This document shows, one piece after another, positions 1,533 to 15,127 of a DNA stretch of 15,748 nucleotides (its first letter is position 1; every line of letters begins with the position of its first letter). Both the position numbers and the translations under genes were made by a program. The notes under the pieces are model-generated. The model had not been told where the DNA came from and searched no databases. It saw only the letters and a list, made by a program, of their open reading frames with translations. The DNA is from Mytilus galloprovincialis (lineage: Eukaryota), in assembly GCF_965363235.1 (NCBI RefSeq), contig NC_134842.1, positions 34,168,757 to 34,184,504 on the forward strand, given 5' to 3'.

Positions 1533-1690
1533 ATAAACTCATCATAGATACCAGGACTAAATTTAGTGTATACGCCAGACGCGCGTTTCGTCTACAAAAG
1601 ACTCATCAGTGACACTCGAATCCAAAAAAGTTAAAAATGCCAAATAAAGTACGAAGTTGAAGAGCATTGAGAACCAAAATTCCTAAAAGT
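1533..1690 (-). mobile_element. SINE-like / retrozyme-like short interspersed element (~156 bp), copy 1. It carries a minimal type-I hammerhead ribozyme motif on the minus strand.
   Basis: It is about 90% identical to 4603..4758 and clearly homologous to the degenerate copies at about 5312..5452 and 5633..5774. The shared ends are 'ataaactcatcatagatacc...' and '...accaaaattcctaaaagt'. Confidence 0.6.
1565..1619 (-). ncRNA. Hammerhead ribozyme motif (type I, minimal helix III), copy 1.
   Basis: The minus strand reads gagugucaCUGAUGAgucuuuuguagacGAAAcgcgcgUC|uggcguauacac. CUGAUGA is plus 1603-1609. Helix II is GUCU/AGAC with a UUUGU loop (plus 1590-1602). GAAA is plus 1586-1589. Helix III is A-U plus C-G closing a palindromic GCGC loop, with a GUC triplet. 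The predicted cleavage is 3' of the C that pairs with plus g1578. Helix I pairs ucac...ugg with ca...guga using G-U wobbles. All core nucleotides needed for catalysis are present. Confidence 0.55.
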
Positions 1691-2939
1691 TTTGCCAAAT
1701 ACAGCTAAGTTAATCTATGCCTGTTGTAGAAAAGCCTTAGTATTTCAAAAAAATCAAAAATTAGGAATATTGGTGGTTGTCACCAAGGAGAAGAAAAAAC
1801 TTATGCAGTTGTACAACAGAGATATTACTGGCCAAATATTATATCCTTGTTATTCGAGTATACATCTACATAGTGTATGTATTTTATTGTCTCCATCCAT
1901 TTTTATTCGTGATCAACTCAATATGCTACTAATGTCCAAGTTTTGTGTTTGAATTTAATTGTCCAAGCTAATTGCAAATTCAATTGCATCTACTCACAAA
2001 ACAATTGTTCTATTAAAGTGTGGAAATACTAAAATTGGAGCTGGCACAAAACCGTTTTTTAATGACTTTTTGACAATTTTGTGTCCAGATAAAATTGTCA
2101 TTTTCTATGGTAATGAGTAAGTTAAGTATTATTTTTAGTAATTATATAACACATTTCTCGCAATAACTGCATTATTCTTAGAAACTGCCAGTTGGTATAT
2201 TTGTTTTGTTTTTATTGGTATTGGATATGATTGTGCACCAGGGTTTCTTTCAGGATTAACTTTAAATCATTTTTTTGGACAAAACAAACTTCAGCTTAAT
2301 TAATGTACTTTCTTAGAAAATGAAATTTTTGCTGGGTTTTGGAAATATTTGCTTGTTGTAATTTATCAAAGACCAATTGTAAATGATTTAAATGCACACA
2401 CAATTTTACTGAAAATCAAAATGTAATTTGTATAAACTGAAGCTACTGTCCAGTTCAATTCGTTTAAAACCTTTGTCAGGAGTATTTGAAAGGCATATGG
2501 TGCATTTATTAATCCAAAGCTTTTTCTTTTGAATTGGTAATAGTGACTTAAGTTTTAGCAGTATCACTCAGATTTCAATTCTCAAGGCTAAATAAGTATT
2601 TTTTTAGGCTAAATACAACTTTAGACGTCAAGGTAGAATTGTAATCTGAGTAATACTGGTGAAACTCAAGTCACTATATAATAACTTGGGTGGTAATTAA
2701 TTCAGATTAATGTTGTTTCTGGGTCAAGACGTATGTACACTAATCAACCTAAAGAATCAAGCACTAAATCATGACAGCTTTGGAATATATTTAAAGCAAC
2801 AATAATAAAGTCATCATCAACCCATAGAAAAAGTTTTACTCTTAATGCCTTTTTTAGTATGCAATACAGCAAACATAAAATCTTATTCTGCACCCTTTTT
2901 TACTTTTTTTTATGGCTCTATTATATCATTTTTTAACTC

Positions 2940-3050: not shown

Positions 3051-3900
3051 ACTTCTGTTAGAAAGCCATTGCATGGATTGAACCCAAACATGACATAAAT
3101 GTTCTTTATGATGTGCTGACCAAGTGTTGTTACTTTGTAGTTGATCCATCATCCAAGATGGCTGCCAGTAGAGGACTTAGTTTAACATATAGGAACCTAT
3201 AGGAAATACATACAAATGTCTTCTTTTAGAGAACCACTGAATGGAATGTTACCAACCATGGCAGGAATGTTCCTTATGAGGTGCTGACCAATCTTGTTAC
3301 TTTGTAGCCGATCCATCATCCAAGATGGCCGCCAGCGGATCACTTACTTTACCATAGGACCCTACGGGAAATACATATAAATGTCCTCTTTTAGAGAACC
3401 TCTGAATTGAATGGAGCCAAACATAGCATAAATATTCCTTATGAGATGCTGACCAAATGTTGTTACTTTGTAGCCGATCCTTCGTCCAAGATGGCCGCCA
3501 GCGGAGGACTTAGTTTAACATTGGACCCATGGAAAACCATACAAATGTCTTCTTTTTTAGAGAACCACTGAAAGGAATGAAACCAAACATTGCATGAATT
3601 TTCCATATGATGTGCTGACCAGGTGTTGCTACTTTGTAGCTGATCAATTATCCAAGATGACTGCCAGCTTGGGATTTAGTTTAACATAGGACCCATGGGA
3701 AATACATACAAATGTCTTCTTTTAGAGTACCACTGCTTGCAATGAATTTGAAACTTAATTACTACGTCATAAATGTTCCTTTTGAGGTGGTGATCAAGTT
3801 CTGCTTCATTGTTGCTGATTTACTGTTCAAGATGGCCACCCGGATTTATTACTACATGTAAATTATGGGGCCAATATTTTACCAAATTTGGCCTCACTCA
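3050..3900. repeat. Tandem satellite array, about 5 monomers of ~166-167 bp (the last monomer is more diverged at ~175 bp).
   Basis: The conserved monomer landmark 'CCAAGATGG' starts at 3153, 3320, 3486, 3652 and about 3827. Each monomer begins 'tcttcttttagagaaccactg...'. The core is 'gtgctgaccaa(g/a)tgttgttactttgtagc(c/t)gatcc(a/t)tc(a/g)tccaagatggc(c/t)gccag'. Confidence 0.85.
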
Positions 3901-4094
3901 TTATGTAAGTATCTGTTAGATAGTAGATTTTTATCTATTTTTATCTTATTTCAATAACCTAAGTACAGTCAGGTGAGCGACACAGGCTCTTAAGAGCCTC
4001 TAGTTATGTTTGCACTTAGTCCAGTTGGATTTAAAACTCTGTGCATAGCCTTTCCATTTTGTACGATAACTTGCAGATTTGAACCATTGAATTA

Positions 4095-4610
4095 GGTTTT
4101 TAGCTCACCGGGTCCGAAGGGTCCCATGTGAGCTTATGCCATCACTTGACGTCAGTCGTCGTCTGTCGTCGTCGTTAACTATTTTAAAAATATTCTTCTC
4201 TGAAACTACTGGACCAAATACCTTCAAACTTACAGTGAATGTCTGATAGTATCTAGTTAATAAATTGTATCCGAGGTTTTGATCTACCAACAAACAGGGC
4301 TAAAAATAGAACATAGGGTTCAAATGCAGTTTTTGGTTTATATCTCAAAAACTAAAGCATTTAGAGCAAATCTGATAGAGGTAAAAATGTTAAACAGGTC
4401 AAGATCCACCAGCCCTGAAATTTTCAGACAAATCAAACAAACCATTGTTGGGTTGCTGCCACTAAATTGGTAATTTCAAGGATATTTTGCAGTTTTGGGT
4501 TATTATCTTGAATATTATTGAAGATAGAGATAAATTGCAAACAGCAAAAATCTTAAACATCTTCTCTGAAACAACTGGGCCTAATACTTCTAAACTTTAA
4601 ATAAACTCAT
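4095..4610. repeat. Second copy of the composite element: a head with a 7-bp stem hairpin 'agctcac...gtgagct', then a long (~365 bp) monomer variant bounded by direct 'tcttctctgaaacNactggNccNaatac' motifs.
   Basis: The head is homologous to 2940..3050. The motif at 4194-4235 is repeated at 4559-4600. The internal 'caggtcaagatccaccagccctg' is homologous to the satellite core 'catccaagatggccgccagcgg'. ORFs 4105..4293(-) and 4279..4473(+) lie inside it and are treated as spurious. Confidence 0.55.
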
Positions 4611-4758
4611 CATAGATACCAGGACTAAATTTTGTATATACGCCAGACGCGCGTTTCGTCTACATAAGACTCATCAGTGACGCTCGAATCCAAAATAGTT
4701 AAAAAGGCCAAAAAAAGTACGATGTTGAAGAGCATTGAAGACCAAAATTCCTAAAAGT
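4603..4758 (-). mobile_element. SINE-like / retrozyme-like element, copy 2.
   Basis: It is collinear with 1533..1690 and begins immediately after the composite satellite block. Confidence 0.6.
4633..4687 (-). ncRNA. Hammerhead ribozyme motif (type I), copy 2.
   Basis: The minus strand reads gagcgucaCUGAUGAgucuuauguagacGAAAcgcgcgUC|uggcguauauac. CUGAUGA is plus 4671-4677. The helix II stem is preserved with a loop change (UAUGU). The helix I change U to C (plus 4682) turns a G.U wobble into a G-C pair. The predicted cleavage is next to plus g4646. Confidence 0.55.
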
Positions 4759-5236
4759 AACTGTTTAAAGCAAAAACTGATATACATTATAGCTCAAAAA
4801 TATAAATCATGTTTGATGAATGAATTGGGCTAAAAAAAAACTAGGTAAGCGATTAATTACTTGCTAAGGCTGACGTAAGTTTTAAAGTCCTTTTATTACG
4901 GTGCCTAACAGTAACCCTAACAGGTATTATATTAAACTCATAATGTTGGTGATAACTTCTGGTACAGTTTTAAACCTGCAAAGTGTTCATTATCCTTATT
5001 TATAGTTTAATTAGGAAAAATACAACAAGGTTAACAAAACAATCCCAACATTTAATACCATGCAGTTTGTTAGGGTTACAGGCTTTACTACGTTGAGTTA
5101 AAGAGCGAGAAACACGCAAAATATATAAATAGATTGCGGTGGAAATAAAATATAAGAAACATTACCTAACTCCTCATGTTAAAACACAACGTGAAGGTTA
5201 TTGTTTTTACATATTTGCTGATAAAATATTTTCAAC

Positions 5237-5879
5237 AACGTTTAATTTGCATACTTGAAATAAAGCATCTGCAATTAATTTCAGAACCCTTCTACGCATG
5301 ACTAGATTACAATAAACACATCATAGAAACCAATATTAAAATTCCCTACGCCAGATTTTGCTTACAAAAGACTATCAGTGACACTTAAAAAAAAAAGTTC
5401 AAATGGCCAAATAATATTACGAAGTAGAAATACAAAAACGAAACCCTTTTTCAACTCCAAAACGAAGTTGTTGCAATTTATATAAAACAATGAACAGAGA
5501 GAAAATGGTTTAGCGAATCAAATTTTATCTAAAGAGTGTGTGTGTTTGTTTATTAACAACGTTTAATTTGCATACTTGAAATAAAGCATCTGCAATTAAT
5601 TTCAGAACCCTTCTACGCATGACTAGATTACAATAAACACATCATAGAAACCAATATTAAAATTCCCTACGCCAGATTTTGCTTACAAAAGACTATCAGT
5701 GACACTTAAAAAAAAGAAGTTCAAATGGCCAAATAATATTACGAAGTAGAAATACAAAAACGAAACCCTTTTTCAACTCCAAAACGAAGTTGTTGCAATT
5801 TATATAAAACAATGAACAAAGAGAAAATGGTTTAGCGAATCAAATTTTATCTAAAGAGTGTGTGTGTTTGTTTATTAAC
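5237..5879. repeat. Tandem duplication, 2 x ~321 bp. Each unit contains a degenerate (ribozyme-dead) copy of the SINE-like element at about 5312..5452 and 5633..5774.
   Basis: 'aacgtttaatttgcatacttgaaataaagcatctgcaattaatttcag...gtgtgtgtttgtttattaac' occurs at 5237-5557 and again at 5558-5879 with only a few substitutions or indels. In the embedded element the hammerhead box is mutated to CUGAUAG and the GAAAC box is lost. Confidence 0.85.
5870..5875 (-). promoter_or_regulatory. Candidate AATAAA polyadenylation signal for the minus-strand Mab-21/cGLR gene, about 40 nt 3' of its stop codon. A duplicate sits at 5548-5553 in the other repeat unit.
   Basis: Plus 'tttatt' equals minus AATAAA. Its position relative to the stop at 5912-5914 is appropriate. 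No transcript data are available. Confidence 0.3.
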
Positions 5880-5911
5880 GACGGTTTGTTCCAAATAAAA
5901 CAAGCATCATT

Positions 5912-8095
5912 TTATTTATTTAATGTACTGAAAATTGTTTGAAATATCGAATTAGGCAACGCAAAAATTCTTCTCGTATAGTTTTCATCACATCCATAGT
6001 CATTAAAGCTATCAAAAAATCTAGATAACATTGAAACATCGATATCACGAAACCATGAAAGATCTCCATCAGATTCAATATGAAAAAAATCGTTCATCGT
6101 AAAGATTTCACTTTCACAATCATTTTGAACATTTCGTGTTATAATTCTGCCCGTGATTTTCATGATAGTTACGATTAAATCATGAACTTGTTTCTCGTAT
6201 TCTGATCCAACGAAATGAACTTGTATCATTTTGTTAAACTCCTCCTCACTATGTGGTAAATCAGATTGTCTTAGATAGCATAAAAATCGCAAAAAATGAC
6301 AATATACTTCAGGACAAACTTGATAAAAAAGTGCATTTCTTTGCCTATAGTCTTCTATGGATAACAAATTTAAAAAACAATTAAAAAATCTCGACAGTTC
6401 TCTCACAGATATTTTTCCGGACTTATCAGAAATAGTGATATTTTCTGTATAATAATGATTTAAACAACCTAGAAACTCAGAACTCAACTCCTTTGTCATA
6501 TGTGTTGTGCTAGAACATTCCACAACAGTTTTAGTGCCAACATGGAAACATCTAAACTTGACGCTTTCTAAAACAAAACTGGTGACTTGCAAGCATTCTT
6601 GGAATTTTCCCTGATTATACAACCAGCTTGCTAGCATTGTCTTACCACACACCAAATCTGCGCTACATCCTATACACAATAAATGTATGTATAGTTTTCG
6701 TAAGGTATGTAGTTGTTTATGGGTCATTTTCTTATCATCTATTTCTAAAAAGTGACAAATGTGACTCAGAAAGCGACATCGGATAACAGGTGTATTTACC
6801 ATAGATTTTACATATGATAGGAGGTATTTCTGTCGTTTAGCGATGATCATATTGCTCATAATGAGTTTTGCGTGTCTTGACAGATCTAAAATAAGTCTTA
6901 AGCATTCTTTTTTAAACTTTACATTTTGAACACAATAAAGCGATCGTATTGATAGTGGATACTTTAAAAACGTTTTAAGTTTTCTCAAGGTTGAACTTAA
7001 AGTAACCCAGCTGAATCCACTGTGCCGTATTTCGCACAAGAGCGCCAGCAATTTTTCTTTTCCTGCTGGTGTGAAACGTTCTAAAAACATATTATTGATT
7101 CGAACAAAGTAGTTTGGACAATTTTCCTCTACAATAAATTGAATCAGGCGTTCCAAGCATAAATGGAATGATAAAATAAGGAAATCGACATTCCAAATAG
7201 ATTGTGGATTGTCTTCTATTACCCAGAAAATTGTGGTCTTCAAAAAGTAGGAACACAAATGTTCTGCTATATCATGATGGACGCATATTACCTCTTTTAA
7301 AATGAGTTTCAGTAATCCATATACTAACAGTTGTGTATGACTAAAAGAATGAACTAGCTCCCTTTCTGCAAATGAAAAGGATAGTCTCCATTCAATTTCT
7401 TCTGTGGTTCTAGCATCCACTTTACTACTGACAGGAACTAAATGACAACTTTGACTTTGAATATTTTGGATCATTTCCCGTGAAGGCCATCCGTATTTTC
7501 TTTTTCTAAGCACCCATTCGCTCGCAATGTTTGGCCAAGTGACAGTTTTTATACAATAAACTAAATCAAAGTCTTCTCCACAAGTTGAAGCAGTCATAGC
7601 TGGTCCATGAGGTTCCATTTGAAAAATCAATTTCATAAAAGGCACGAAAACAGAAATACTTGTTTTAAAGAAAGAACTTGAAAGCAGAGTAGACGGATAA
7701 CCTCTCATCCAAGTTTCAACCAGAACGTATCCTGGTTTTAAGTCAGGTAACATTGAATCGTATCGACATGACAGCAAGGGATTCGATTTATCATCACCTT
7801 CATACGCTTCAATTGTGGAGTCTGTCATCATAATATCTGTGTCGCTTCCTTTCATATCCAAACCCTCGGCTTTACTTCCGCTTGCAAGTAGTGTATTACT
7901 CAAAAAATCTATATTATGAGGATATTTCTTATCAATTATTCTCCTGCGACACCTAACAATGTACTCATTTCCAATGTGATATGATAAAAAGCAAAACAGA
8001 ATTTTGGATTGTGAGTAGAAGTTTATGAGTCGGTTTCTTTGGTTGCCTGAAAAATAATTAAACATAGAAACTGTTTTTACTACTGAAATGGCCAT
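5912..8095 (-). CDS. Mab-21 domain nucleotidyltransferase, a cGAS-like receptor (cGLR)-type protein of 727 aa with a C-terminal ~300-aa alpha-helical (possibly TPR-like) extension. It is a single exon.
   Basis: There is a true ATG at 8093-8095 (tactactgaaATGgcc). The ORF is an uninterrupted 2184 bp in DNA that is otherwise closed by stops every ~60 bp. Motifs: LLASGSKAEG (G73-S74, the NTase GS motif); SDTDIMM (D85 and D87, the [DE]h[DE]h pair); GEDFDLV (D175/D177, with the third acidic residue 90 aa downstream, as in cGAS where the DxD-to-third-Asp distance is ~92); EWRLSFSFAE (res 235-244, the Mab-21 signature). Confidence 0.85.
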   Translation of the reverse strand: MAISVVKTVSMFNYFSGNQRNRLINFYSQSKILFCFLSYHIGNEYIVRCRRRIIDKKYPHNIDFLSNTLLASGSKAEGLDMKGSDTDIMMTDSTIEAYEGDDKSNPLLSCRYDSMLPDLKPGYVLVETWMRGYPSTLLSSSFFKTSISVFVPFMKLIFQMEPHGPAMTASTCGEDFDLVYCIKTVTWPNIASEWVLRKRKYGWPSREMIQNIQSQSCHLVPVSSKVDARTTEEIEWRLSFSFAERELVHSFSHTQLLVYGLLKLILKEVICVHHDIAEHLCSYFLKTTIFWVIEDNPQSIWNVDFLILSFHLCLERLIQFIVEENCPNYFVRINNMFLERFTPAGKEKLLALLCEIRHSGFSWVTLSSTLRKLKTFLKYPLSIRSLYCVQNVKFKKECLRLILDLSRHAKLIMSNMIIAKRQKYLLSYVKSMVNTPVIRCRFLSHICHFLEIDDKKMTHKQLHTLRKLYIHLLCIGCSADLVCGKTMLASWLYNQGKFQECLQVTSFVLESVKFRCFHVGTKTVVECSSTTHMTKELSSEFLGCLNHYYTENITISDKSGKISVRELSRFFNCFLNLLSIEDYRQRNALFYQVCPEVYCHFLRFLCYLRQSDLPHSEEEFNKMIQVHFVGSEYEKQVHDLIVTIMKITGRIITRNVQNDCESEIFTMNDFFHIESDGDLSWFRDIDVSMLSRFFDSFNDYGCDENYTRRIFALPNSIFQTIFSTLNK

Positions 8096-9957: not shown

Positions 9958-11202
9958 TAAATACTCATCTGTTATGTAAATATCAGGCGTCCATGGTTCA
10001 TCGTACATCTTTTTGTTTTTGCTTGCAACTTCCTTGCGTAGATATCCATGAACATTTCTTTCCGATATCAAGCTATGACTCCTGTCTGTCTCAATGTTAT
10101 GAATCTTTATACTGCAAGAAGTAGGAATAGCGTTCTCTGCGTTTTGAATATCGATGGGTTAATGCAACAATCTCGTATCTAGAAAGTTGTGACTTTTCAG
10201 AAACCGACATACAAAGTTTGACTGTAAATGTAAATTCTATTTTAATACAGAAATGTATCAAATTAACATAGATTGCTAAAATAGACATAGTTACTATCCT
10301 TTTATAATTTGATGCTAATTGGTTGTCAGATAAAAGATATAATTGCACTTGAAACGTTTAACGGATATATGCATTCCATAATGATTAAACAGTAATACAG
10401 ATGTTTGTGTCACAAGGTCATTACTAGTGATAACAGATTTGAGCTTGTGTGGTATATCAAATTCTAAATGTTGTTTGGTAAGCATCATTGCATTTGCAAG
10501 CGATAAGAGATTGTTGAATTTGAAAAACGAATTAATATAACTAATTATTTTTTATTTGTTTTGAATTATATACTGTGAATAAATTCAAAATAACACTTGA
10601 TATAATTAAAAAGATGATATAAATACAGGGAAAACTATACACAAAGTAATCATAGAAAGTGAATTAAAAATAATATATAATTATTCATAAACAACATTAT
10701 TTTTTTTGACAAATTATTTTCCAATCATTTTTTTTTTGTTTGTTTTAAAAGGTTACATTATTTTAAAGAATTTATGGTAAAGGATCCTTTTTATTTTTAT
10801 AATAAATACTATTATTTTCTGAAACACATGATGAAATTATATACACATAAAGAAATTGAATTTATTAATGTATTGTTTGAAGTAGTGCACTGAATCTTAA
10901 AGAAGAAAAGACAAAAATTCCAATAAAGAAAGATCGAATGTTGTTAATAAAACAAAATATAGTAATTTTTAATTCGATATAAGTGACAATTAGACTAAAA
11001 TAATTCCATGTACTTGATCACAATCAAATATAACACAGCAACAATCAATGAGTTTCCTAAGGTTACGTGAATGGAAAATGAAATGCATAATTCACTATAT
11101 CAGTTAATGTTATAAATGTCGCAATTGTTCTTCTTCCTAATATTCCCTTAAGTTGTATTAATATAACTGATAAACCAAGATTGTTAGATTGTATTTGTTT
11201 GG

Positions 11203-11298
11203 AAGACAACTGATGCAGTTTCCAGTCTTAATCATTATTCTTTTTCGGAGAAGACAACTGATGCAGTTTCCAGTCTTAATCATTATTCTTTTTCGGAG
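11203..11298. repeat. Perfect 48-bp tandem duplication (2 copies: 11203-11250 and 11251-11298).
   Basis: 'aagacaactgatgcagtttccagtcttaatcattattctttttcggag' occurs twice, identical. On the minus strand it encodes '...PKKNND*' including the stop of ORF 11276..11512. Confidence 0.9.
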
Positions 11299-11512
11299 TC
11301 AATTTCATCCTCCTCAACATCGGATCTGGGAGTATATTTGGTGTTTTGTCGTCAGATTTTAATCCTTTGTAGAGGCTGTGGTACTCTCTTGGAATAACAC
11401 TAGTTTTACAAAGATTCAGTAAATCTTTCTTTTTAGCAGCATATCTCTTCCGTATCTCCATTAAATTAACGGGACGACCTTTTCTCGTCTGTTCTTTCAC
11501 TCTCGTTGACAT
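11276..11512 (-). CDS. Hypothetical small basic protein or exon (78 aa, Lys/Arg-rich), immediately downstream (minus sense) of the 45-bp minisatellite.
   Basis: There is a true ATG (plus 'cat' at 11510-11512, with 'gttgaCATcag'). It is open for 78 codons in AT-rich DNA. It is +1-frame relative to the minus-strand repeat ORF 11466..11795. There is no recognisable domain. Confidence 0.2.
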   Translation of the reverse strand: MSTRVKEQTRKGRPVNLMEIRKRYAAKKKDLLNLCKTSVIPREYHSLYKGLKSDDKTPNILPDPMLRRMKLTPKKNND

Positions 11513-12175
11513 CAGCCTGTTTGATAGTTGATTCTGTAACAGGGTTTACAGTGACATTAGCCTGTTGAATAGTTGATTCCGTATCAGGGTTTACAGTGAC
11601 ATCAGTCCGTTGGATAGTTGATTCCGTATTAGGGTTTACAGTGATATCAGCCTGTTGGATAGTTGATTCCGTATCAGCATTTACAGTGACATCAGCCTGT
11701 TGGATAGTTGATTCCGTATCAGCATTTACAGTGACATCAGCCTGTTGGATAGTTGATTCTGTATCAGGCTTTACAGTGACATTAGCCTGTTGCATAGTTG
11801 ATTCCGTATCAGCATTTACAGTGACATCAGCCTGTTGGATAGTTGATTCTGTATCAGGCTTTACAGTGACATTAGCCTGTTGAATAGTTGATTCCGTATC
11901 AGGGTTTACAGTGACATCAGCTCATAGGATAGTTGATTCCGTATTAGGGTTTACAGTGATATCAGCCTGTTGGATAGTTGAATCCGTAGCAAGGTTTACA
12001 GTGACATCAGCCTGTTGGATAGTTGATTTCGTATCTGGGTTTACAGTGACATCAGCCTGTTGGATAGTTGATACCGTATCAGGATATACAGTGACATCAG
12101 CCTGTTGGATAGTTTATTCCGTATCAGGGTTTACAGTGACATCGGCCTGTTGGATAGTTTATTCCGTATCAAAGT
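11506..12175. repeat. Minisatellite: 45-bp unit x ~15 copies (unit 'gtgacatcagcctgttggatagttgattccgtatcagggtttaca').
   Basis: The period was measured directly ('gtga(c/t)atcag' at 11641 and 11686). Copies are 85-100% identical. It is open in frame on the minus strand (15-aa repeat TESTIQQADVTVNPD) and on the plus strand (WIVDSVSGFTVTSAC). Confidence 0.9.
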
Positions 12176-14820
12176 TTCCTCCAAGTTATCATCTGAGGAC
12201 CACTATATGTCTGCCATATTCTTTTTTATATCTACAACAGATACGAAATGTAATGCAGATATTTTCTTTCAAACATTTTTCCTTAAACATATATAATCTA
12301 GTATTATTATATTAAATGTTACATAATTTTTGTATATATGAAATAATCGTGTACAAGTGTTTTGTATTTGAAATGCTTAAAATAGTAAATAGATATATAT
12401 TTTCTTACATACTTATGCAGCTTATTTATCTTTTAAAAAAAGTCATATGTTACGATTTATTTTTTGCATTTAAAAAATATATACTTAATTTGTATGTTTC
12501 ATTAAAAAATTGATTCATTTTTCAATATACTACTTTTTCCGTATAAACTTACCAAATAATATCTGTAGGCATACATTTTTTTCTTTTTCTTTTTTCTCTT
12601 GTCTCAAATAATATAGATGCGACTGCAAAAACAAAACAAAAAACATGCGCTTATTGTTACTAACGAAATTTACAAAGATACAAACATCTTTAATTTATTA
12701 TCTTTTTAAATATTTTTCTCTAAGAAACAGCTAGGTTTAATAAATTGTACGGTAAATAATTATGTTATGTTATAATTTCAATTTAAAAACGTAAATTAAA
12801 ATGTAAAAGTTATTAAAGTATAATTGAATTAAAAATTAATTATCTATCTTAATATGCATTATTTTTAAACAAAATATACAAACCTTTTTTTCTAATTTGC
12901 AGCTTTTTTGCTGAATATCAAAATTCCATGTCAAAACCCATCATCAATCAAAACAATTACTTGGTTTAATCTCAGTTGATGTTTATATTATCTAATATGA
13001 GGTCATGCCAGTAACATTTAATTGACCTTGCTTGTTTGATAACCTGCTGATATTCACATTTCTTTAACAGCTGCAATACATTATCTGATGTTGTGGGGGA
13101 AATGGTTTTAGGTGTTGAAATAAATAAATCAAAATGTCAATTGCAATATGAAGGTAGTACTTGTTACAGTGTTGAGGCATATACATTTTCATACATTGTT
13201 TGTTAATAGGAATGCAACACACCTTATAGTTAGATATTTTGTTGAGGCGCTTGGTGCAAGCTATTTAATTTTAAGAATAAATCGTTCATTCTTATAGTAA
13301 TACGAGATAAGTCGTTCATGTTGGCATACTTTCGTTATCAAACTTATAATAGATTGATGAACATGTCAATTAAAAATTTGTTTTATGACCAATTGCTCTA
13401 AAAAATTTCGGGAATATTATATAATACTTTTGTCTTTAAAAAATCATATAATCTCAAAACTGCAAAATTTTGAGTTAAGAGGTTGATGCATTAACCCCTC
13501 GATATGGATTCGTTGAATTTCGTCTGTAGACAGATCGTTACTCTTTGAAGACTTCTTATTCACAAAGTCGTTCACAAAGATGACTGAATGATACTGAGAG
13601 TAACTACTGTATAATTCTTTTCGTACCTGAGTAATCTTACTCTGGTACCATACATTTCTCAATAAACTTGTATTTGTTGATATTTTCTTGGTAAAATAAC
13701 CGTATACATTTTGGTTGGACATTGTTGTATTGATAGATTTTTCAGCTGTATACTGAAAAATATAACGCTTAAGTTACAGGCAAACATTGTAATTATAATG
13801 TTCTTATGTATTAAAAAGAAAAATAAGATGACGTTTTTCAAGTCAACAGACTATACTAGAAATTTTGGTCACTTAATCATTGATCAATTAGGATGTGACA
13901 TGACGCCAAATTTTTATACATCCCGAAAAGCCAAACGGAAGTCAACTGCTTTCAATTTTTTTAAGATTTAGATTTGTGTTACAACAACCCAAACATAATT
14001 CAGAACATATAAGTGGAATCACATATAAGCGACCTTAATCTTGTTAAAATCATGGTAAATACAAAAAGGCAAAAATTAATAAAACACCACCAAGGAGAAC
14101 TTATTTGTTCATGGAAGGTATAAGATCAGACCTAGAATCATATCGCAAGCAATTCAAGGAAGACAGTAGTAAGAACGACGTTGAAGCATTGTGATATCCG
14201 TTTAACACTAAGGAACGAAACAATTGTGAGGAGCATACCTTCTAAACAGATTGTAACAAGATGGAACTTTCCCTGGACGACAACAGAAAGAAAACATAGA
14301 TTGTTAAATAAAGTCACAAATCAGAAAACAACAACACCGATAGATATTAAACATTACAGGTCAGATTTTCTTAGGAAGAGTTTCCTATAGATTACAATAA
14401 AAATATTGAAGACTGTACCAGGAATTATCAAACAACTGACAAGTATCAACTCACACATATATACAGGGACCGGAGATTAGAATATACAACACATCAATAA
14501 ATACAGGATCAGTACCCTCCAACTGGTTTGTCGGAAATACTATCAACATTTTTTTAAAGGGATACAAAACAGGTCAACCAAACAACCGACCTGTTTCCCT
14601 TACGTCTGTACAATGTAAAATTACTCTTTAGTGCACTATGGACCATTTATATGGAAATAAATTCCTGCCATCATAACAGTTTGAATTTCGAAAGTACCAC
14701 TGATGTGAACAGCAACTCACCAGCACTGCTAAAGATCAACGCAAATAAGAGATCAGAAACGCTAAGCAAATACAGTTCGAAGAGACCGGACGCAAGTATA
14801 AACGCCCGTTGTTTATGTTT

Positions 14821-14959: not shown

Positions 14960-15127
14960 AGAGATAACTGTATTGTATTTGAAGCTTTGCGGACGTCCAT
15001 CGGTAGTTTTACTGTCGCAAATACCCGTTTACCTGTTTCCGCTCCGCGTCGCCAGGTAAACTAAATTTGCGACAGTAAAACTACCGATGGACGTCCGCAA
15101 AGCTTCAAATACAATACAGTTATCTCT
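14960..15127. repeat. Perfect long inverted repeat or hairpin: 63-bp arms (14960-15022 and 15065-15127, 100% complementary) and a 42-bp spacer that holds an inner 8-bp stem (tttacctg 15027-15034 / caggtaaa 15053-15060).
   Basis: Arm 'agagataactgtattgtatttgaagctttgcggacgtccatcggtagttttactgtcgcaaat' is followed downstream by its exact reverse complement. No clear target-site duplication flanks it (left '...gaat', right 'taaa...'). Confidence 0.9.

Follow-up and report, generated by a model that had tools for sequence, protein, structure and literature searches.

The window, by which we mean the whole 15,748-nt stretch of Mytilus galloprovincialis DNA analysed here, contains a single long open reading frame (ORF). 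It lies at 5912-8095 on the minus strand and encodes a protein of 727 aa with Mab-21 nucleotidyltransferase and Mab-21_C domains (Pfam), which matches M. galloprovincialis LOC143075677 at 99% and an M. trossulus protein at 90%. This Mab-21/cGAS-like (cGLR-type) gene is a member of a very large Mytilus/bivalve paralogue expansion, with 354 matches at E up to 0.001, mostly from Mytilus.

Repeats of several kinds are found around the gene. Near its 5' part lies a 3.35-kb insertion (10156-13501) with imperfect terminal inverted repeats (CGATGGGTTAATGCA... / ...TGCATTAACCCCTCG), which is absent both from the orthologous M. trossulus locus and from an M. galloprovincialis paralogue. The empty site reads GCGTTTTGAATATGGATTCG and the filled site GAATAT-element-ATATGG, which suggests that a short target duplication rich in A and T (ATAT or TA) flanks the element. 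With no transposase ORF detected in it, the insertion looks like a non-autonomous DNA transposon. Inside it are a 45-nt tandem repeat present in 14.8 copies (11507-12171; 89% matches), which is open on both strands and encodes 15-aa repeats such as TESTIQQADVTVNAD, and a perfect 48-nt repeat present in two copies (11202-11298); the only Pfam matches here are weak and are probably repeat artefacts. An inverted repeat with 63-nt arms, 100% complementary and separated by a 42-nt spacer, occupies 14960-15127. A long imperfect hairpin on the minus strand at 2541-2676 obtains a weak score of 31 bits (E 0.04) with the Rfam miRNA-precursor family MIR7504, against a gathering score of 83, and is probably a plain inverted-repeat element.

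The subject of this analysis is a short repeat that is represented in the window by four related pieces (Table 1). The reference used for their identification was a 353-nt retrozyme clone, "Rtz Genom mussel Mg353" (Supplementary Table 2 of PMC7229834). Two of the pieces, which we call copies 1 and 2, are 93% identical to each other over 161 nt (blastn, repeat search) and stand 3,068 nt apart. Queried with the element itself, blastn places copy 2 at 4598-4758 and the other two pieces at 5312-5429 and 5633-5751, the latter at about 74%. The first-pass annotation had counted at least four copies of the element in 16 kb, which holds for related pieces, but only these two keep an intact ribozyme; likewise, the length of about 156 bp assigned to the element is that shared by copies 1 and 2, whose own lengths are 230 nt and about 160 nt. 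Between the two lies another tandem repeat (3054-3746), GC-richer than the DNA around it, with a 166-nt unit in 4.2 copies at 80% matches; it contains no ApaI site, and it may resemble the ~160-bp core repeats of bivalve pearl/BIV160-type elements.

Table 1. Retrozyme-derived features of the window and the components of their hammerhead motifs; positions are counted from the first nucleotide of the window.
Feature	Position	Strand	Basis or remark
Copy 1, solo 5'-truncated retrozyme copy, 230 nt	1533-1762	-	blastn vs Mg353
Type-I hammerhead motif, copy 1	1572-1615	-	core 1609-1578; predicted cut 3' of C +1578
Copy 1 core CUGAUGA	1609-1603	-	sequence read
Copy 1 helix II, GUCU/AGAC, 4 bp	1602-1599 + 1593-1590	-	loop UUUGU
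Copy 1 GAAA	1589-1586	-	sequence read
Copy 1 helix III, 2 bp	A1586-U1579, C1585-G1580	-	loop GCGC 1584-1581
RF00163 match, copy 1	1615-1572	-	30.5 bits, E 3.8e-4, full model
Copy 2, solo 5'-truncated retrozyme copy, ~160 nt	4599-4758	-	blastn vs Mg353
Type-I hammerhead motif, copy 2	4640-4683	-	core 4677-4646; predicted cut 3' of C +4646
RF00163 match, copy 2	4683-4640	-	33.0 bits, E 5.8e-5, full model
322-nt x 2.0 tandem duplication, units 99% identical	5234-5883	.	Tandem Repeats Finder, repeat search
Degenerate retrozyme fragment	5311-5429	-	~73%, Mg353 positions 151-280
Duplicate of the same degenerate fragment	5632-5751	-	second unit of the 322-nt tandem duplication

Read along the minus strand of the interval 1400-1800, copy 1 presents the succession ...GAGUGUCA CUGAUGA GUCU-UUUGU-AGAC GAAA C-GCGC-G UC UGGCGUAUACACU..., in which every invariant nucleotide of a type-I hammerhead is found in the right order, as had been claimed from a first reading of the sequence. 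The 2-bp helix III, its GCGC loop and the GUC triplet, which ends at C1578, were described correctly as well, and the cut predicted between the complements of +1578 and +1577 falls at the coordinate obtained here. A descriptor-like search pattern (CTGATGAG-N8-16-CGAAAC-N4-8-GTC) has exactly two minus-strand matches in the window, 1578-1609 and 4646-4677, and none elsewhere in it, and was matched by none of 200 dinucleotide-preserving shuffles.

The agreement with Rfam is less straightforward. The curated gathering score of Hammerhead_1 (RF00163) is 34 bits, and at this threshold the family has no match in the window; the two motifs surface only in E-value mode, where the alignment spans model positions 1-45 (cmscan). 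The Rfam check recommended by the first-pass annotation therefore gives a divided answer: the gathering score is missed by 1-3.5 bits, which by the letter is the outcome named there as refuting the reading, but the E-values are significant. The score falls short because helix I is credited with only three of the six model pairs. Six pairs are possible in helix I of copy 1 (A-U, C-G, U-G, G-C, U-G and G-U), and a distal stem GGAUU/AGUCC is seen when the 81-nt context of the motif is folded. The comparison with Mg353 given below shows that the sub-threshold score is a shortfall of the model's helix I consensus and not of the ribozyme. This has a bearing on annotation practice: standard pipelines would miss these two intact motifs, which lie just under the Rfam gathering score.

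Folding of the isolated RNA, either as the motif or as the whole element, does not return the hammerhead as the minimum free energy (MFE) structure, and the z-scores are positive and unremarkable. Hammerheads whose helix III has only 2 bp typically behave in this way, and single-strand folding is uninformative for them. The GCGC loop of copy 1 is part of an 8-nt perfect palindrome, ACGCGCGU (1586-1579, minus strand), and when two motifs are folded together by RNAcofold, the palindromes pair into an 8-bp intermolecular helix III with a gain of about 10 kcal/mol over two monomers. The formation of this joint helix indicates that the double-hammerhead mode known from salamander elements is open to the motif.

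Could the hammerhead consensus have been matched by chance? The sub-threshold Rfam score and the absence of the hammerhead from the MFE structure count for such a reading, but the outcome of the shuffling and the E-values of both motifs speak against it, and the motif is the same as that of an experimentally active ribozyme and is kept in many related copies. We regard the probability of a chance match as negligible; the identity of the motif to that of Mg353 excludes it.

The source of the active ribozyme is the same genus. Cervera & de la Peña (2020, Nucleic Acids Res) made M. galloprovincialis the mollusc with characterised metazoan non-LTR retrozymes, and reported in its genome about 5000 type-I hammerheads of two closely related ribozyme families, usually located within ~350-390-bp repeats (PMC7229834). 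A cloned mussel repeat self-cleaved co-transcriptionally as a single unit, with kobs of about 0.1/min, and retrozyme circRNAs of about 350-400 nt were abundant in gonad and mantle (PMC7229834). Copy 1 corresponds to Mg353 positions 49-279 with 92.7% identity over 232 alignment columns, and copy 2 to positions 121-281 with 92.0% (blastn). In the ribozyme itself, copy 1 agrees with Mg353 at 44 of 44 nt, from GUCAC through UGGCGUAU; outside this stretch a single helix I change of C to U turns a C-G pair into U-G and keeps the pairing. Copy 2 retains the helix I C and differs from Mg353 once, in loop 2 (UUUUGU to UUAUGU). Even the published primers are recognizable, as 109D (TGGCGTATATAYAAAATTTAGTCCTG) is found exactly in copy 2 and the reverse complement of 109R exactly in copy 1.

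Other properties of the copies are those of the same family. The GC content around both is about 0.30, neither contains an ORF, and no terminal repeats surround them; of the features of LTR retroelements, no LTR, PBS or PPT is seen. A Pfam search of the Mab-21 ORF and ten shorter ORFs of the window found no reverse transcriptase (RT) or GIY-YIG endonuclease domain. Judged by its sequence, 1533-1762 is a copy of a published and experimentally validated retrozyme, already known from the same genus, and the first-pass view of a non-coding, non-autonomous, retrozyme-like retroelement with a type-I hammerhead is borne out by the match of 92-93% to Mg353. The finding is in this respect a rediscovery of a family already cloned and known to cleave itself and to make circRNAs. 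By analogy with clone Mg353, the ribozymes of both window copies would be expected to self-cleave.

The label 'SINE-like', which the element had also received, does not survive closer inspection. The alternative it implies is a classical SINE driven by pol III and carrying a hammerhead, as proposed for Schistosoma Sm-alpha. The element is indeed short, dispersed and non-coding, and GGATTCGAG loosely resembles a B box in our own reading, which we counted in favour of a SINE. On the other hand, ARAGORN detects no tRNA-like region, and a search of Rfam at E up to 10 gives no 5S, 7SL or tRNA match; no A-rich or simple-repeat tail follows the 3' end at ...GAGUUUAUUU, pol III would be stopped by the six T residues (T6) that immediately precede the ribozyme, and the full form of the family is a tandem unit of about 370 nt. 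With no small-RNA head, no tail and the T6 run, we reject a true SINE, an origin that appears scarcely credible.

In what form, then, is the family represented at this locus? For comparison we pooled the window with seven Mytilus loci (L001, L002 and L008-L012), chosen through their Mab-21 paralogues or orthologues, and with five metagenome contigs. The family unit measures about 353-372 nt, so that the 156-161 nt seen earlier are a 5'-truncated piece of it. Copies 1 and 2 make up 0.65 and 0.45 of the unit, hold one ribozyme each and are without the central segment. When 230-240 nt of flanking sequence on each side were aligned locally to a dimerised 372-nt unit, the scores were at the level of shuffled sequence, and no retrozyme sequence was recognized beyond the boundaries of either copy. 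The tandem arrangement that delimits units of ~350-390 nt is therefore not displayed by the window copies, but it is found in two other members of the pooled set. At the paralogous M. galloprovincialis locus L002, positions 6953-7509 form a 1.5-mer with two hammerheads 372 nt apart, and the segment between these ribozymes is GC-richer (...CCACTGTGTCGTTGTCCCTGCTGGTGGAG...CAGCCCAGTAGTCAGC...) and corresponds to the middle of the published circRNA consensus. The metagenome contig L004 carries an array of at least 2.5 units.

With one ribozyme and no central domain, a solo copy cannot release a unit-length circle. The expectation that the element yields small circular RNAs, attached to it at first reading, is consequently correct for tandem members of the family but not for the solo copies of the window, which are structurally unable to produce them. 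The window copies are truncated derivatives of the retrozyme family and not functional retrozymes, and most likely they are inert retrocopies that were dead on arrival. A 2026 preprint on animal retrozymes considers "monomer derivatives" to be probably unable to transpose.

The two remaining pieces of the window are decayed. Their core reads CUGAU-AGUCUUUUGUAAGCAAAA------UCUGGCGUA; both have lost a core G and the whole of helix III, helix II can no longer form intact and the GAAA is changed, and 5311-5429 has no Rfam match in E-value mode. They occupy equivalent places in the two units of the 322-nt tandem duplication, which lies directly downstream of the Mab-21 ORF stop at 5912. We considered whether this duplication might be a retrozyme dimer generated by the rolling-circle mechanism and rejected the idea: the retrozyme contributes only about 120 nt to each unit, beside some 190 nt of other DNA, the core is no longer intact, and in M. 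trossulus the unit is not duplicated. It is a segmental duplication specific to the lineage of the window. The degenerate fragment itself is orthologous, with matching flanks, in M. coruscus (L012:12728-12850) and in M. trossulus (L001:14530-14609), and is therefore an old insertion. Both fragments of the window thus go back to one old, decayed insertion, which a later duplication copied together with the DNA on either side.

The boundaries of the copies follow a consistent pattern across the pooled set. In 13 copies (the window and L001-L012), the 3' end falls at Mg353 positions 279-285 (...CUAUGAUGAGUUUAUUU), some 46 nt beyond the cleavage site, with different, unrelated DNA following each time. 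This common terminus is seen at positions 1533 and 4599 of the window and at L001:16412, L002:7509, L003:2115, L005:2596, L007:1226, L008:5343, L010:4125, L011:859 and L012:12850. Copies of the second ribozyme subfamily (..UGGCGUA-CAAAAUUAUAAUCCUGGUAC..) seem to stop at the corresponding point. The 5' ends are scattered, at Mg353 positions 49, 61, 98 (plus one full unit), 121, 124, 144, 150/151, 175 and 192. Target-primed reverse transcription usually leaves this signature, a constant 3' end and 5' truncation of varying extent. We infer from these boundaries that cDNA synthesis would begin internally, at one defined site some 46 nt beyond the point of cleavage, and not at the RNA end made by the ribozyme. 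The insertion ends and the cleavage site lie apart, so what was copied was presumably a circular or multimeric RNA with internal priming and not a cleaved linear monomer. This combination of termini is the one point of specialist interest in what is otherwise a known family. As a separate observation, L001:16306-16463 includes a second copy, truncated inside the ribozyme, which begins right after the common 3' terminus.

Target-site duplications were sought by comparing the two flanks of each insertion; the longest words they share have a mean length of 6.0 nt, and mismatched flanks, used as a control, gave 5.4 +/- 0.96 nt, with no signal rising above it. No empty site for copies 1 and 2 was recovered by comparison with M. 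trossulus (L001), M. galloprovincialis (L002) and L009/L010, which encode the same protein. The M. trossulus locus is syntenic with the window across the gene and not downstream of about 5150, and L009/L010 show synteny only from about 5450 onward, L010 having an extra copy at 3965-4125. All retrozyme pieces of the M. trossulus locus are degenerate, and no hammerhead was found in it at E up to 1. L009:20236-20272 and L010:20200-20236 also contain a stretch of 38 nt with 89% identity to the 5' half of the hammerhead (..CUCUGAUGAGUCUUUUGAAGG..) and lacking the 3' half; this stretch falls inside the interval of a called gene (254 aa) to which no function has been assigned. In total, about 21 retrozyme-derived pieces were encountered in about 178 kb of sampled Mytilus DNA, and in this small and biased sample solo truncated copies seem to be much commoner than the ~5000 reported intact motifs.

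Termini of this kind raise the alternative that the copies are 5'-truncated 3' ends (pLTRs) of an autonomous, hammerhead-bearing Penelope-like element (PLE). Canonical PLEs carry a hammerhead near the 3' end within the pLTR, and bivalve genomes abound in short, 5'-truncated copies of that end (PMC8557442). The fixed 3' end a short distance after the cleavage site and the variable 5' ends fit this picture, and the 2026 preprint makes the case that PLE pLTRs gave rise to animal retrozymes. Against it, the agreement of copy 1 with the retrozyme clone extends over 230 nt, as far back as position 49, and at L002 and L004 the sequence runs on into the retrozyme central domain and then into the next unit, not into an ORF; nor did any tested ORF of the window have an RT or GIY-YIG domain in Pfam. 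The hammerheads of PLEs are described as rarer and still more minimal variants (PMC7229834). A PLE end is in our view an unlikely description of these copies.

We hold instead that copies 1 and 2 very probably arose from two independent insertions of the Mytilus non-LTR retrozyme family, each single and 5'-truncated. The life cycle from which they would have arisen may be outlined as follows. Full units of ~353-372 nt are normally arranged head-to-tail, and each type-I hammerhead cuts the array transcript; the resulting unit-length RNA is ligated into a circRNA. The circRNA is presumed to be copied into DNA by the RT of an autonomous element, probably a Penelope-like element. If the minus strand of the window were transcribed, each intact copy should cut once, after C +1578 or C +4646, either on its own or by way of the 8-bp ACGCGCGU helix III that two motifs could form between them.

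A bolder extension of this scheme would have the two intact hammerheads act as a pair. A read-through or local transcript of the minus strand, cut at both sites, would release a 3.07-kb RNA with 5'-OH and 2',3'-cyclic-phosphate ends, made up of ordinary genomic DNA sequence including the 166-nt satellite, which RtcB might circularise into a chimeric circRNA. If true, paired cutting would be a route for retrozymes to capture new sequence; we consider it decidedly improbable here.

The position of the copies next to a gene invites the question of whether the host has co-opted one or both intact ribozymes, for instance to cut Mab-21 read-through transcripts and so to aid 3'-end formation. All four copies share the strand of the 5912-8095(-) ORF and follow it downstream, and the 2026 preprint states that exon-overlapping retrozymes are found mostly in 3' UTRs. 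The only copy kept at an orthologous site in M. coruscus and M. trossulus, however, has a decayed core, and the intact copies, at distances of 1.15 and 4.2 kb downstream, stand in DNA that shows no synteny with M. trossulus. An AATAAA overlaps the Mab-21 stop codon, so that mature mRNAs may end well before any copy. We give little weight to a host function because of this overlap and because the sole conserved copy has lost its ribozyme; co-option strikes us as very unlikely.

How does the element compare with other known hammerhead-bearing systems? Plant LTR retrozymes are likewise non-autonomous and hammerhead-processed, with circRNA intermediates, but they carry 4-bp target-site duplications, and their type III hammerheads, LTRs, PBS, PPT and high GC content have no counterpart here. 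Schistosoma Sm-alpha is also a dispersed, short, non-coding repeat with a type-I hammerhead. Pol III promoter boxes have been described in Sm-alpha, whereas no pol III-type head was found in the window element by Rfam or ARAGORN. With PLEs the window copies share a ribozyme near a defined 3' terminus, frequent 5' truncation and, at the level of the family, partial tandems (PMC8557442), but they are without an RT/GIY-YIG ORF. The satellite 2 of newts and salamanders and the axolotl retrozymes resemble the mussel element in their type-I hammerhead, whose helix III is very short, and in the double hammerhead that two motifs can form through this helix, but there is no sequence similarity beyond the catalytic core, these amphibian elements form very large tandem arrays, and the mussel clone already cleaves as a single unit. 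The closest counterpart is the Mg353 retrozyme, which belongs to the same family by its 92-93% identity over 160-230 nt and agrees in GC content, in its non-coding nature and in host genus; it differs in that its functional form consists of tandem ~350-390-bp units giving rise to circRNAs, whereas the copies of the window are solo and truncated.
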